DNA from: an uncultured Candidatus Saccharibacteria bacterium
GTDB lineage: Bacteria; Patescibacteriota; Saccharimonadia; Saccharimonadales; JAGQNK01
Assembly: GCA_964636435.1 (NCBI GenBank)
Contig: CAZWRS010000002.1
Coordinates: 296 to 64,295, forward strand
DNA: 64,000 nt
Reading direction: 5' to 3'
The first letter of the stretch is position 1. Every line of letters starts with the position of its first letter. The position numbers and the translations under genes were made by a program. Of this stretch, positions 31,990 to 37,465 are shown piece after piece. The notes under the pieces are model-generated. The model did no database searches and had not been told where the DNA came from. It saw only the letters and a list, made by a program, of their open reading frames with translations.

Positions 31990-32018
31990 CCGTATAATGC
32001 AGGTAAGTCACTAAAGTT

Positions 32019-32123
32019 ATGAAAACAAAAATTAAGCAAAAGGTTACTTTCCCGCGCGTTCTCGCGGTTGCCTGTTTGGCGGCACTCGTATACTTGAGTA
32101 CTGTCGGGCCAGTTTATTTTTGA
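32019..32123 (+). CDS. 35-aa single-TM mini-ORF upstream of the atp promoter
   Basis: MKTKIKQKVTFPRVLAVACLAALVYLSTVGPVYF. No family recognised; it may not be expressed. Confidence 0.2.
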   Translation: MKTKIKQKVTFPRVLAVACLAALVYLSTVGPVYF

Positions 32124-32144
32124 TGCCCTGAGGGATGCACTGCT

Positions 32145-32173
32145 TTGAAATTTCAGCACACTTGCGCTATAGT
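32145..32173 (+). promoter_or_regulatory. Candidate sigma70 promoter for the atp operon (TTGAAA-17-TATAGT)
   Basis: TTGAAA at 32145-32150 and TATAGT at 32168-32173 with a 17-nt spacer, about 50 nt upstream of the atpF GTG start. Confidence 0.5.
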
Positions 32174-32223
32174 CATAGCTAAAGCTAGAAGCATAAACAT
32201 ATTAGGTGGGAGACACATAGAGC

Positions 32224-33448: not shown

Positions 33449-35010
33449 GTAGTTCCCGTTCAAGTACTGCTGCTTCTCGCACCGGCAACAAGCACTTCGA
33501 CAAACTGGTGGCTGCTGGTAACCCAGTTGGCGAAGTTATTGCGGTTGAAAAGTTCCTGATACGCGCTACCGGACTGCAGCCGTGTGCGACGCACGCACTC
33601 GTCATGTTCGAGGACGGCAGCAAGGGCTTTGTGCATCAGATTGCTGATGATCACGTCGTGATTCTGCACTTAGGTGAAGTTCCGGTGAGCGTCGGCACGA
33701 TAGCCGTCGTGCAGCATCAGGAGCTGGTGTGTAAAGTGGGTAAGAACTTCGTTGGCCGGGTTGTGTCGGTCACTGGCGAGCCGCTTGACGGCAAGGGTCC
33801 GATTGCAGCTGATACCACCTGGCCGGTATTTAATCCTGCGCCGCCCCTGTATGAACGCAAGCTGCTCAGCGAGCAGCTAGAGAGCGGCGTGATTACCATT
33901 GATGCCCTGTTTCCAATTGTCCGTGGTCAGCGCATGGCCCTGCTTGGTGACAGTAAGTCGGGTAAAAGTACGCTTGTCACGCAGCTGACGATGAACCAGA
34001 AGAATACTGATCAGGTGGTCGTGTACGTGCTGATTGCCAAACGCCGCAGTGATGTCGAAGAGCTGATTACTCGCCTGGAAGAGTCCGGTGGCATGAAGAA
34101 AGCAGTCGTGGTGGTGGCAACGATGTTCGAATCGCTCATCATGAGTTACATAGCCCCCTATGTCGGCTGTTCGATTGCTGAGTATCTTTGGCAGAAGTGC
34201 GACCAGGACACGATTGTGATTTACGATGATTTGACCTCCCATGCACATGCCTACCGTGAGGTAGCGTTGCTGTCTGGTGTCAGCCCGGGCCGGGACTCCT
34301 ATCCGGGCGATATGTTCTACGCCCATTCGAGTCTTCTGGAGCGTGCCGGACGACTGGAGAAAAGCGGCAAGCATCTCACCAGCATTCCCCTGGTCAACGC
34401 GGCCGGCGGCGATATTACGGCTTACCTGCCGACTAATATCATGTCGATCACAGACGGCCAGTGGATACTGGACATGAACATTTTCCGTGACGGTATTAGG
34501 CCAGCGATCAATATGGGACTCAGTGTCACCCGTGCCGGCGGTGTCGGGCACAATAAGCGCCAAAAGGCACTCGCCTCCCAGACGCTTAAGCTGCTCGCCG
34601 ACTATCGGCAGGCAGCAGAGTATGCTCACTTCGGTACCGAGCTGGCTGCCGAGGCGAAGCGGGCGCTGGCGACGGGCAAAAAAATATTTGAACTGGTGAG
34701 TCAGTCACCGATGGAGACGTACTCACTCATAACGCAGCAACTGATGCTCGATATCATCCTGAACGCTGATAATCCGGATTTGGTCGACCTCGCGGCGCTT
34801 AAGCTGAAAGCGCCTGACTTGGCTGGTAAGGTCAAGAAAGACGACGATTACGCTGCTGTTCATCGGGAGCTGCTGGCCCAGGCTGTCAAGGGCGGCCAAT
34901 CGACTGCGACGCAGTCGCAAAAAGCTTCAGCGGCAGACCCGAAACCAAAGCAGGATGACAAGAAAGAGACGAAAGCTGGGGCAAAAAATGAGGCGTCCGC
35001 AGGAAATTGA
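33445..35010 (+). CDS. atpA: F-type ATP synthase subunit alpha
   Basis: P-loop GDSKSGKSTL; alpha-type N-terminal beta-barrel region GEVIAVEKFLIRATGL; 521 aa. Confidence 0.9.
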   Translation: MSSSRSSTAASRTGNKHFDKLVAAGNPVGEVIAVEKFLIRATGLQPCATHALVMFEDGSKGFVHQIADDHVVILHLGEVPVSVGTIAVVQHQELVCKVGKNFVGRVVSVTGEPLDGKGPIAADTTWPVFNPAPPLYERKLLSEQLESGVITIDALFPIVRGQRMALLGDSKSGKSTLVTQLTMNQKNTDQVVVYVLIAKRRSDVEELITRLEESGGMKKAVVVVATMFESLIMSYIAPYVGCSIAEYLWQKCDQDTIVIYDDLTSHAHAYREVALLSGVSPGRDSYPGDMFYAHSSLLERAGRLEKSGKHLTSIPLVNAAGGDITAYLPTNIMSITDGQWILDMNIFRDGIRPAINMGLSVTRAGGVGHNKRQKALASQTLKLLADYRQAAEYAHFGTELAAEAKRALATGKKIFELVSQSPMETYSLITQQLMLDIILNADNPDLVDLAALKLKAPDLAGKVKKDDDYAAVHRELLAQAVKGGQSTATQSQKASAADPKPKQDDKKETKAGAKNEASAGN

Positions 35011-35857
35011 AGTAGAGAAGCTCGCCATGGGGACGCTGGTGGAGCTGACCGGCGTGTTTGAAGGCATTGCCAGCATGCGGATAGCCCAAATCAAGAACCA
35101 AGTACTGCAGTCGACTAATTTTTTCCGGGAGTTGTGGCAGATTTACTCCCAGTTGCGGGTCGGTACGCAGTTCGGCTTCGGCCGATCCCAGGAGGAATTT
35201 GAAGTCATAGACAAAGAGCTCTACATTATCATTACTGCCGAAGGCGGCTTTTCCGGTGACATTGACCAGAAGCTCATCCACCTCATGATGGAGACGTACG
35301 ATAAAGATAAGAATGAAATTATCGTTATCGGTCATCACGGTGCGTTGCAGCTCGCCCAGCGCAGCATTTCGTATAAAAAGTACTATAAGCTGCCCGTCCG
35401 CGATCAGAACATCAACGTGACGCCGATTATCAACGAAGTCCAAAAGTACCGTTCCACGACCATGTTTTACCAGCAATACGTCTCGCTCATGCAACAGGAG
35501 GCCCGCAAAATTGAACTGTCTACGGCCGTTCAGACGGAAGGGAGCGAGTCAGACAAGATTGACGAAATTATTTCCGAGAAAAACTACATCTTCGAGCCGA
35601 GCACGTATGATGTGGTGGATCACCTGGAGCGCTCGATGATGCAGATTGCCGTCAGCCAGCTTATCTTAGAGTCAAAGCTCGCACAGTACGCTTCCCGTTT
35701 CCGCGCCATGTCCGCAGCAAACCAGCGGGCAGTCGAGGCCAAGGATGATCTCAATCTAGAGTTCAACCGTGCCCGTCGCGCCCTTAAGGATGAGCGCCTG
35801 AAGGAGATTGTCAACGGACTGAAGAAATCACGAAACCTTGCGAGTATGCCGCTATGA
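34955..35857 (+). CDS. atpG: F-type ATP synthase subunit gamma
   Basis: Coiled-coil N- and C-terminal helices (…[13 protein letters not shown]…, …[17 protein letters not shown]…). An alternative start at 34988 (MRRPQEI) reduces the overlap with atpA. Confidence 0.75.
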
Positions 35858-37161
35858 GTACCGGAAATATCACAGCCATAAAAGACCTCGTCGTTTACGC
35901 TCAGTTCGATGATGAAATGCCTGAAGTCGGTGAGATCATTATCGTGGATAATGGCCATGACACGGCACTGCTCGTTGATCACCTGAAGCCCGGCGGCTTA
36001 GCAGTCTGTTTGAATGTCCGTACTGACCGCCGTTTGCAAAAAGGTATGACAGTTAAGCGGACGACGAAAGGCATTGAAATTCCCGTCGGTGATGCGACGG
36101 TGGGCCGTATCTTAAACGCGCTTGGCGATCCACTGGATGGCCAGCCGGCCATCACTGGCAAAGATGTGGTGCTGAAGGATATCACGAAGCTGCCCGCGCG
36201 GTCGTCAACTTTCACTAAGCAGAAACCAGAGATTCTCGAGACCGGGATCAAGGTAATTGACTTCTTCACCCCGTTCGTCAAAGGCCGTAAGATCGGTATC
36301 ATTGGTGGCGCCGGCGTCGGTAAGACGGTGCTGACCATGGAGCTTATTAACAACATCGCCAAGTCCGGGTCCGGCCTGTCTTTCTTTGCCGGTATTGGTG
36401 AGCGTATACGTGAGGGGCATGAGCTGTGGGATACCTTGCGTGAAAACGACCTGCTAAAAAATACCTGCATGTTCTTCGCCCAGATGAATGAAAATCCTGT
36501 ACAGCGCTCTTTGGTGGCGATCTCCTCGGTTGCCCTCGCTGAGCATTTCCGGGACGAAGCTAAGAAAGACATCCTGTTCTTCGCGGACAACATGTACCGC
36601 TATGTTCAGGCCCGGAACGAGCTATCGACCATTATGGACCAAACGCCGAGCGAGGGCGGCTACGAACCGACGGTATTTTCAGACGTCAAAGTCCTCCAGG
36701 ATCGTCTGAGCTCGAACGACAGGGGATCGATTACGTCTGTTCAGACTATTTACGTACCGGCCGACGACTTATCCGACCCGGCTGTACAAATGATCCAGCA
36801 TGAGCTCGACTCGGTGTTGGTGCTGTCCCGCAAAGTTGCCGAACAGGGTATCCGACCGGCTGTTGATATCAGCAGTACAACCTCTTCACTGCTGACACCG
36901 GAAATCGTTGGCGATCGCCACTATGTGTTAAGCGTACGGGTCCAGAGCCTGCTGCAGAAGTACGACTCGCTGAAGAACATTATCGCCATCATCGGCGAGA
37001 GTGAGCTCTCCGCGTCTGACCGCGCTGACTACGCCAAGGCCAAACGGCTGATCCAGAACTTCACACAGAATATGACCGTTATGGCCAAGCACACCGGCGT
37101 GCCGGGTGACTACTTTACGCGCGAGCAGACCTTGCAATCAATTGAAGAAATCATCGCTTAG
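35854..37161 (+). CDS. atpD: F-type ATP synthase subunit beta
   Basis: P-loop [10 protein letters not shown]; the DELSD-like region is ADDLSDP. Confidence 0.9.
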
Positions 37162-37168
37162 GTAGCCT

Positions 37169-37465
37169 ATGGTCGAGGAAGCGATGACCGATAGCCAGCA
37201 GCCGGAGCTCACTGTTCCCAAAGGCAAGATGCACGTCAAAGTATACGCACCGTTTAAGACATATTTTAACGGTATAGCTAACAGTATTTCGGCGGTGAAC
37301 GAAACGGGTCCGTTCGATATTCTGCCGCAGCACCACAATTTTATGACGCTGCTCAGTCCCTGCGATATTATCGTCCGGACCGATCAGGGTGACGAGAAGT
37401 TTACGATTACGCGCGGCATTATGCACGTCAAGGCAGACAGGGTCATTGTATTTCTCGATGTCTAA
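37169..37465 (+). CDS. atpC: F-type ATP synthase subunit epsilon
   Basis: 98 aa; N-terminal beta-sandwich pattern MHVKVYAPFKTYFNGIANSISAVNETGPFDILPQH. Confidence 0.7.
   Translation: MVEEAMTDSQQPELTVPKGKMHVKVYAPFKTYFNGIANSISAVNETGPFDILPQHHNFMTLLSPCDIIVRTDQGDEKFTITRGIMHVKADRVIVFLDV

Follow-up and report, generated by a model that had tools for sequence, protein, structure and literature searches.

The DNA analysed here is a 64-kb stretch, the window, from an uncultured Candidatus Saccharibacteria bacterium. Near its middle, six co-directional, closely packed and intact open reading frames (ORFs; 32224-37465, + strand) encode proteins that resemble the F1 head and stalk of an ATP synthase. We consider it fairly probable that this cluster is a paralogous, Fo-less, ATP-hydrolysing F1-like motor, rather than the downstream part of a canonical operon that has been split. 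Two of its genes, here called bL and dL, occupy the positions of the b and delta subunit genes. A seventh gene, cL, heads the cluster in most related species and appears in the window as two remnants. Related loci that were aligned or compared with the window are denoted L001 and so on. The features of the locus are as follows.

30844-31989, + strand: iscS-like cysteine desulfurase gene (PF00266, E=5e-57), the upstream flank, outside the cluster.
31970-31998, + strand: P1, promoter-like TTGCCC-17-TATAAT, overlapping the end of iscS (consensus scan, 10/12 matches).
32019-32123, + strand: mini-ORF of 34 residues, MKTKIKQKVTFPRVLAVACLAALVYLSTVGPVYF, apparently the 5' stump (signal peptide) of a deleted cL.
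32124-32188, + strand: putative non-coding 3' remnant of cL (last ~22 codons), from nucleotide alignment with full-length cL 3' ends.
32145-32173, + strand: P2, promoter-like TTGAAA-17-TATAGT, within the cL remnant (scan, 10/12 matches).
32204-32212, + strand: Shine-Dalgarno sequence AGGTGGGAG before the GTG start of bL; its GGTGGG is kept in all aligned loci.
32224-32847, + strand: bL, b-subunit-like stalk protein, 207 aa, with a transmembrane (TM) helix, K-rich linker and long helix in the AlphaFold2 (AF2) model.
32852-33448, + strand: dL, putative divergent delta/OSCP-like protein, 198 aa, from profile matches to OSCP/delta.
33445-35010, + strand: alpha-like subunit, 521 aa (PF00006, E=2.7e-69, and PF00306).
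34988-35857, + strand: gamma-like subunit, 289 aa, or 300 aa from 34955 (PF00231, E=9e-32).
35854-37161, + strand: beta-like catalytic subunit, 435 aa (PF00006, E=9.8e-63).
37184-37465, + strand: epsilon-like subunit, 93 aa, or 98 aa from 37169 (PF02823, E=3.6e-13).
37534-38607, + strand: mnmA (PF03054, PF20259, PF20258), the downstream flank, outside the cluster.

The gamma start at 34988 is that of the gene calls on identical Logan contigs. An earlier, sequence-only reading of this DNA had named the genes atpF-atpH-atpA-atpG-atpD-atpC. The ORF map upholds the six-gene layout, and Pfam confirms four of the identities (alpha, gamma, beta and epsilon). Neither Pfam nor NCBIfam has a model that matched bL or dL, and the names atpF and atpH could not be kept.

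The four recognisable subunits combine an intact catalytic apparatus with marked divergence. Beta has Walker A and Walker B (FFADN) motifs, the catalytic Glu is present, and alpha has both a P-loop (GDSKSGKS) and the Arg finger, in the context SVTRAGG. All four fall below the NCBIfam equivalog cut-offs (atpD, 423 vs 463 bits; atpA, 383 vs 484; gamma, TIGR01146, 92 vs 194; epsilon, TIGR01216, 42 vs 67). Beta covers positions 2-434 of the 462 in the atpD model, leaving the C-terminal ~28 residues of canonical beta missing, and reads ESELSASD where canonical beta has DELSEED. Epsilon consists of the N-terminal beta-sandwich only and lacks the C-terminal (regulatory) helices. In a library of 1.84 billion proteins, the closest full-length 50%-cluster representatives of beta were 42-48% identical to it. 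Judged by sequence, alpha, beta and their partners appear to form a divergent clade, apart from canonical F1. The last ~55 residues of alpha (34840-35010, residues ~465-521) form a low-complexity tail, rich in K, D, A and Q, that is missing from canonical alpha; the gamma gene starts inside this tail, with an overlap of at least 23 nt.

Other specialised F-type families were compared as well. Beta and alpha stay far below cut-off with the alt_F1F0 models of the N-ATPases (368 vs 752 for beta, 313 vs 750 for alpha), and the mycoplasma models MSC_0618, MSC_0619 and glide, which beta also matches, likewise stay below theirs (376 vs 570 for MSC_0618, 250 vs 520, 338 vs 850 for glide, and 322 vs 600). 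We rejected an N-ATPase identity on these alt_F1F0 scores and on the different gene order and content, and a flagellar or type III secretion system ATPase on gene content and NCBIfam scores.

The first two genes of the cluster had to be characterised by other means. Searched against the GTDB species-genome collection, bL has relatives in 481 genome stretches; our comparisons use the best 80 loci, almost all of which are labelled Saccharibacteria or Saccharimonadales. The protein has 5496 homologues, all labelled hypothetical, and no PDB sequence match. Its AF2 model comprises a TM helix (residues 3-27), a disordered K-rich linker (28-40) and a helix of ~150 residues (56-206); as the model is a single helix, Foldseek was uninformative. 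We call bL b-like for this modelled architecture and for its position, and neither sequence nor fold searches bear out homology to b. At a median identity of 65% across species, comparable to the 73% of alpha and the 70% of alaS, bL is more conserved than is usual among stalk proteins. A 36-residue block, FREELRNRGRLHFEKIIGENAMFLQQDLRLTTSQLN (residues 58-93; window 32395-32502), is invariant in 24 bL sequences that elsewhere are 68-89% identical to that of the window, and points to a highly constrained candidate binding partner near the membrane. The block is also retained in lineages that lack cL.

For dL, a profile of 30 orthologues searched against PDB matched only OSCP/delta chains, at E values of 0.009-0.2 and over the C-terminal ~50 residues only. 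The dL hidden Markov model (HMM) also matches a 153-aa protein of L087 (E=7e-9), which itself passes the Pfam OSCP model (PF00213) with 25.4 bits (cut-off, 22.3). Because the profile matches OSCP C-terminal domains and the L087 protein links it to PF00213, dL reads as a probable divergent delta subunit, with an apparently OSCP-like C-terminal domain.

The membrane sector of an F-type ATPase is missing at this locus. In the whole 64 kb, no a- or c-like gene was found among the ORFs with at least two TM segments, whose Pfam assignments were MgtE, VTT/DedA, ABC, bactofilin and PGPGW. A phmmer search with three c subunits (E. coli, PS3 and I. tartaricus) returned no match among the window ORFs of at least 40 aa or in 86 loci. 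Within 10 kb on either side of the 80 related loci, the gene orders, read without a dedicated a-subunit model, hold nothing beyond the window's own set. The order metG-tatD-o123-iscS-bL-dL-alpha-gamma-beta-epsilon is kept across these 80 species loci, and mnmA-alaS-ftsA follow in those whose flank extends far enough. The sequence-only reading, which reported no adjacent a or c genes and only iscS and a single-TM mini-ORF upstream, thus described the neighbourhood correctly: the PF00266 gene at 30844-31989 is followed by a mini-ORF with one hydrophobic helix. It had also allowed that a corrected assembly might place atpB and atpE immediately upstream. They are not there: iscS lies directly 5' of the cluster in 75 related loci, each an independent species assembly. 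Because the same junction recurs in all of these, we rejected an assembly error as the cause of the missing a and c genes.

The flanks themselves were correctly named, as Pfam shows; although iscS and mnmA, as the same reading remarked, act together in tRNA thiolation, their place beside the cluster does not reflect a functional link. In Southlakia epibionticum the run iscS-ydcF-mnmA-alaS-pilM-baseplateJ-ruvX lies together, away from the organism's ATP synthase operon and with no ATPase genes among its members (PMC10633639, Table S1). Since iscS and mnmA are separated there only by ydcF, their position around our cluster is best seen as an insertion into a conserved gene pair. Downstream of the cluster, mnmA is followed by a glucose/sorbosone dehydrogenase gene (PF07995, 38623-39813) and then alaS. 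The dehydrogenase occupies the same place in the closest loci (L001-L004, L007) and is missing between mnmA and alaS in Southlakia and in most related loci reaching alaS; Southlakia has ydcF between iscS and mnmA, in contrast to the dehydrogenase 3' of mnmA in the window.

Relatives reveal what once preceded bL. The gap between iscS and bL, 234 nt in the window, measures ~0.9-1.1 kb and contains cL in 61 of the 80 relatives. The protein of ~280 aa has a putatively cleavable N-terminal signal peptide (consensus M.KTKIKQ..S.QR..A..L..L..LS..GP), followed by an AxA-like site in 54 of the 61 sequences, a beta-rich ectodomain and a C-terminal two-helix hairpin ending ...GRNPLSKKSIIRGMFQVIITGLIIFITGVFGVYLLLKL. 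The family counts 1704 members, none with a Pfam domain. The AF2 model (mean predicted local distance difference test score, pLDDT, of 74.9 over the whole model) contains the signal helix, the beta ectodomain and the hairpin, the last at pLDDT 81-94. Foldseek matched the hairpin to F-type c subunits, including Chloroflexus (9itt_I, TM-score 0.88, root-mean-square deviation 1.2 A), A. woodii (4bem_A, 27% identity) and the Yarrowia, chloroplast and Spirulina rings. For the ectodomain, its matches were phage capsid-decoration domains, DUF2190 and the N-terminal domains of tail fibres. The topology of cL is that of a c subunit, with the N-terminus out, the loop in and the C-terminus out.

The hairpin loop carries an invariant G-R-N-P. 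In c subunits, an R(Q/N)P loop contacts gamma and epsilon, and the RNP loop of cL is similar. The second TM helix lacks the mid-membrane carboxylate that ion binding requires; the sole acidic residue is an E at the position of Q261, present in 3 of the 61 Saccharibacteria sequences. By "c-like" we therefore mean a likeness of structure and motif (modelled topology, RNP loop, Foldseek matches) and not proven ancestry. The end of the cL ectodomain carries a second motif, (V/I)xRNPLLK, which is similar to the loop GRNPLSKK (L011:9121-9972, residues ~183-190 and 246-253); it could be what remains of an internal duplication, or else another gamma/epsilon-like contact.

The mini-ORF upstream of bL, which the sequence-only reading had noted as a 35-aa ORF, corresponds to the beginning of cL. 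Its position, start and sequence pattern are those of the cL signal peptide in relatives. Its conservation, which that reading had proposed to check, is seen in relatives: ORFs of 34-37 aa are retained in seven related loci (L007, L008, L015, L019, L023, L034 and L038). Immediately downstream, nucleotide alignment pairs positions 32124-32188 of the window with the final ~22 codons of full-length cL from L009, L011, L010, L025 and L018. These two alignments indicate that an internal deletion of ~0.7 kb took the ectodomain and most of the hairpin, and that the mini-ORF is, on sequence grounds, the signal-peptide stump of cL. Within the window clade, nucleotide identity in the mini-ORF is highest at codon position 2 (0.76-0.94), lower at position 1 (0.52-0.79) and lowest at position 3 (0.30-0.42), with nonsynonymous divergence (dN) of 0.17-0.52 and synonymous divergence (dS) high or saturated. 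The mini-ORF is probably still translated.

The remnant of cL also appears to carry the promoter of bL. The sequence-only reading had placed a promoter, TTGAAA-17-TATAGT, directly before bL, and comparison with relatives supports it, inside the last codons of cL. The consensus match taken alone is weak (the scan yields 10 promoter-like sites per 8 kb vs 5.7 expected by chance), and the comparative data are its support. The -10 box of P2 falls on the cL codons V-Y-L, and the nucleotides GTATATTTA do not differ among five species that have full-length cL, while dS is saturated in most gene pairs tested. In every aligned truncated locus, TATA(G/T)T is retained. Because these nucleotides are identical despite saturated synonymous sites and the box survives truncation, we infer that P2 functions as a genuine embedded promoter for bL. 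Upstream, every aligned truncated locus has the -10 box of P1 (TATAAT/TATACT) in an unchanged position; P1 is presumed to be the ancestral promoter of cL, which now stands 5' of the mini-ORF.

Loss of cL was not a single event. On a neighbour-joining tree of iscS, bL and alpha, from which L008 and L015 (with the same stump as the window) were left out, the loci without an intact cL fall in about 10 separate lineages. They include the window with L007; L038, L023 and L034; L019 and L036; L020; and L014. In L039 the signal peptide is fused in frame to the last cL residues, L050 keeps the hairpin only, and in L075, L068 and L078 cL is wholly gone. The tree thus suggests about 10 independent losses. 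Mini-ORFs of 34-37 aa that consist of the signal peptide only (L019, L023, L034, L038) occur in at least three separate clades, as independent cL truncations, and the stump may be selected in its own right and not be a chance leftover.

The remaining genes have been kept under constraint. Between the window and L007, which share the truncation, synonymous sites are high or saturated, and dN is 0.074 for bL, 0.122 for alpha, 0.109 for gamma, 0.080 for beta and 0.079 for epsilon; the flanking genes give 0.084 (mnmA) and 0.213 (iscS). Low dN at such high or saturated dS means that the six genes are under strong purifying selection without cL. The constraint on epsilon, gamma and the stalk after the loss suggests that the complex still engages a membrane partner.

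Published genomes bear on whether Saccharibacteria have another ATP synthase. Southlakia has the canonical operon only, complete as atpI-B-E-F-H-A-G-(DUF4406)-D-C (SEML1_0349-0358) and wholly non-essential (PMC10633639, Table S1). Three complete genomes, those of S. aalborgensis, GWC2_44_17 and M. amalyticus, have one gene each for a, b and c, two each for alpha, beta and gamma, and one for epsilon, by BlastKOALA (PMC12592800, Table S5). TM7x and RAAC3 have one each of a, b, c, alpha, beta, gamma and epsilon, and five of 15 bins of the order CAILAD01 have no a, b or c, one alpha, 0-1 beta, one gamma and 0-1 epsilon (same table). The duplication of alpha, beta and gamma passes without comment in that study. 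The genes flanking the canonical operon of Southlakia (NrdH, folC, dus) do not occur in the window, which is evidence neither way.

Similar clusters exist in other Candidate Phyla Radiation (CPR) bacteria. Kantor et al. (2013; PMC3812714) described ATPase operons in WWE3 and OP11 in which the genes designated a, b and c lack homology to known subunits. As in our cluster, alpha, beta, gamma and epsilon are recognisable there, and the membrane and stalk genes before them have no detectable a, b or c homology. Those operons were read as the ATP synthase of the organism, whereas the Saccharibacteria cluster appears to be additional to a canonical one. Two of the nearest beta representatives led to L087 (5746-11644) and L091 (3021-9818), which have a homologous seven-gene order, a low GC content (37-38%) and clusters adjoining rplK/rplA or rplJ/rplL; other contexts of the nearest representatives were short contigs or further atypical clusters. 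The HMM of Saccharibacteria cL matches the first genes of L087 and L091 (E=2e-18 and E=2e-29), and these clusters may be the WWE3/OP11-type operons of Kantor et al. The seven-gene order with cL at its head is thus found in 61 of the 80 Saccharibacteria loci and in L087 and L091, and the window has six of the genes with both ends of cL. The settings differ, as the Saccharibacteria cluster lies between iscS and mnmA and the L087/L091 type by rplKAJL, and the window additionally lacks a c-like gene. Upstream of its cluster, L087 encodes an ORF of 5046 aa.

The closest functional parallel is found in mycoplasmas, whose F1-like X0 ATPases include the gliding motor of M. mobile (Type 2) and the partner of the MIB-MIP system (Type 3), and are described as unique to mycoplasmas (PMC3369863; preprint 10.64898/2025.12.04.692339). 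Our literature search found no link between Saccharibacteria and F1-like ATPases. The likeness would lie in an extra set of alpha-, beta-, gamma- and epsilon-like subunits beside a genuine F1Fo in a tiny-genome, host-dependent bacterium, and neither system has an a or c subunit. One mycoplasma component combines a signal peptide with a large extracytoplasmic part and a pair of C-terminal TM helices, by its description the same layout as cL. ATP-driven transmission of force across the membrane has been proposed for the mycoplasma machines, as we propose it here. The differences are equally plain: neither the 12-TM "protein 1" nor the small cytoplasmic "protein 2" of the mycoplasma systems occurs in this cluster or its conserved flanks, the b-like and delta-like stalk of this cluster is absent from them, and the gene orders differ.

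With the canonical operon (atpIBEFHAGDC) the cluster shares the order of the last six genes, the catalytic motifs of alpha and beta and the epsilon beta-sandwich, and apparently also a single-TM b-like stalk and an OSCP-like C-terminal domain. It differs in having no a and no canonical c, a short beta C-terminus, an epsilon without regulatory helices, subunits below equivalog cut-offs, and b and delta proteins that are invisible to family models. The N-ATPases (atpDCQRBEFAG) are a second F-type set beside a canonical operon, as this cluster would be, but they retain a and c, add AtpQ and AtpR and have another gene order.

The following scheme builds on what the analysis shows: which genes are present, how the parts are related, where the mini-ORF comes from, that cL was lost repeatedly and that the remaining genes are under purifying selection. 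An ancestral cluster, cL-bL-dL-alpha-gamma-beta-epsilon, without an a subunit, would have formed a second system beside atpIBEFHAGDC in Saccharibacteria. Its product would assemble as an alpha3beta3 hexamer with a gamma/epsilon shaft and a delta-like/b-like stalk anchored by one membrane helix. In relatives with cL, the gamma/epsilon foot would stand on a ring of cL hairpins and pass torque or conformational change to the surface ectodomains. In the lineage of the window, the internal deletion of cL would have left its signal-peptide codons and the last ~22 codons, with the -10 box of the bL promoter. With the ring partner gone, the complex there may be a membrane-tethered ATPase or may use another ring, the canonical c-ring or some other. 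Because the cluster has no a subunit and its c-like partner no ion site, it would not couple to the proton gradient by itself, and hydrolysis of ATP, not its synthesis, is most likely the direction of catalysis. What the motor drives in relatives with cL may be movement or strain of the surface ectodomains, by likeness to mycoplasma Types 2 and 3.

Several results weigh against this scheme. Searches of Pfam, NCBIfam and PDB sequences with cL all came back empty, including for PF00137. An hhalign comparison of its hairpin with eight c subunits gave a probability of 11% and P=0.003 over the loop only, so that homology to c subunits at the sequence level is weak; in Foldseek, a likeness to c subunits may arise with any helical hairpin. 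The second alpha/beta/gamma set in the three complete genomes is a candidate member of this cluster type by its counts, and the S. aalborgensis genome was not among the best 120 matches when the bL of a "Saccharimonas sp." locus served as query. The cluster appears to co-exist with a canonical operon in Saccharibacteria, a statement that comes from genomes other than the window's own. Finally, the retention of epsilon and the stalk after the loss of cL fits docking on some ring, possibly the canonical c-ring.

That last point leads to the best-surviving alternative, a hybrid enzyme, which we regard as unlikely. Here the alternative F1 head and its own stalk would dock on the canonical a/c-ring encoded elsewhere and serve as a second proton-coupled isoform, for example for ATP hydrolysis with proton extrusion; the sequence-only expectation of a and c from elsewhere in the genome would then be partly right. 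The parts that would touch a ring or the membrane (epsilon, gamma and the TM helix of bL) are under strong purifying selection after the loss of cL, about 10 independent losses mark cL as dispensable, and three complete genomes pair one a/b/c set with two alpha/beta/gamma sets. The likeness of the RNP loop of cL to the R(Q/N)P loop of c subunits means that the same rotor foot may fit the canonical ring. However, other CPR bacteria have the homologous seven-gene cluster, headed by cL and with no a subunit nearby, and bL has no sequence similarity to a-binding b subunits. The CAILAD01-order bins have alpha/beta/gamma genes without any a, b or c; should those genes belong to this cluster type, as they may, the ancestral machine would work without Fo.

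The sequence-only reading had itself pointed to a split operon, with atpB and atpE encoded elsewhere or absent. On such a reading the cluster would be the sole F1, and atpB and atpE (with atpI) would have moved to another locus, as in some alphaproteobacteria. The order b-delta-alpha-gamma-beta-epsilon is indeed that of the distal part of a canonical operon. Yet all recognisable subunits lie below curated equivalog cut-offs, b and delta are unrecognisable, and the clusters of relatives are headed by a non-canonical c-like gene without the carboxylate, of which the mini-ORF is apparently a stump, and never include an a subunit. Southlakia has its complete canonical operon elsewhere and no ATPase genes in iscS-ydcF-mnmA, and the three complete genomes count two alpha, two beta and two gamma against one a, one b and one c. 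We therefore abandon the split-operon interpretation as improbable. Least probable is a decaying relic whose six genes are pseudogenising after the loss of cL: such a reading could draw on the deletion of cL here and in about a quarter of related species, and on the dispensability of the canonical ATP synthase in cultured Southlakia, a sign that ATPase genes may be under weak selection in epibionts, but the six ORFs and catalytic motifs are intact, and the comparison of the window with L007, with dN of 0.07-0.12 for bL, alpha, gamma, beta and epsilon, as low as that of mnmA, led us to reject it.

A Fo-less, ATP-hydrolysing motor thus remains the reading we prefer. More tentatively, and at a level we would call speculative, it may be a CPR rotary motor in which a cL ring, with neither an ion site nor an a partner, turns or tugs phage-decoration-like domains at the cell surface. 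As a mechanical device of epibionts it would serve attachment, motility or manipulation of the host, and it would be the counterpart, whether independent or anciently shared, of the mycoplasma F1-like X0 machines; the stump in the window would be a newly exapted micro-membrane protein.

Three other regions of the window drew our attention. A stretch at 14000-18000 has a GC content of 46-47%, compared with ~54% elsewhere; besides ORFs with no family match, it encodes a PEBP protein and a TIM barrel of the xylose-isomerase-like kind. A tmRNA gene (14468-14851; Rfam RF00023, 87.9 bits; not called by ARAGORN) lies at its edge, and the stretch could be an island integrated at ssrA. At 42118-45135, the genes for an FtsA/PilM-like protein and a 570-aa protein of the Baseplate_J/gp47 family and then ruvX follow one another as they do in Southlakia (SEML1_0656-0654), whose baseplate-J gene is essential and Patescibacteria-enriched. 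A second low-GC stretch (47.8%) at 60000-62000 takes in a minus-strand ABC exporter (59668-61527) together with a rhodanese/UPF0176 gene (61567-62457).

So far, descriptions of F1-like ATPases that lack Fo have come only from mycoplasmas, where they serve gliding and antibody cleavage, and the cluster, if confirmed, would be a variant outside that group. It would also mean that KEGG-style gene counts lump two systems together and that calls of an "incomplete F-type ATPase" in CPR genomes may be this cluster. Through the repeated loss of the ring gene one could see, as in a natural experiment, what an F1 head and stalk do without it. Ca. Mycosynbacter amalyticus, with two alpha/beta/gamma sets, is in cultivation, and Saccharibacteria are now genetically tractable, which makes the system testable. 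If the proposal is true, these bacteria would possess a candidate ATP-driven surface machine for their epibiotic lifestyle.

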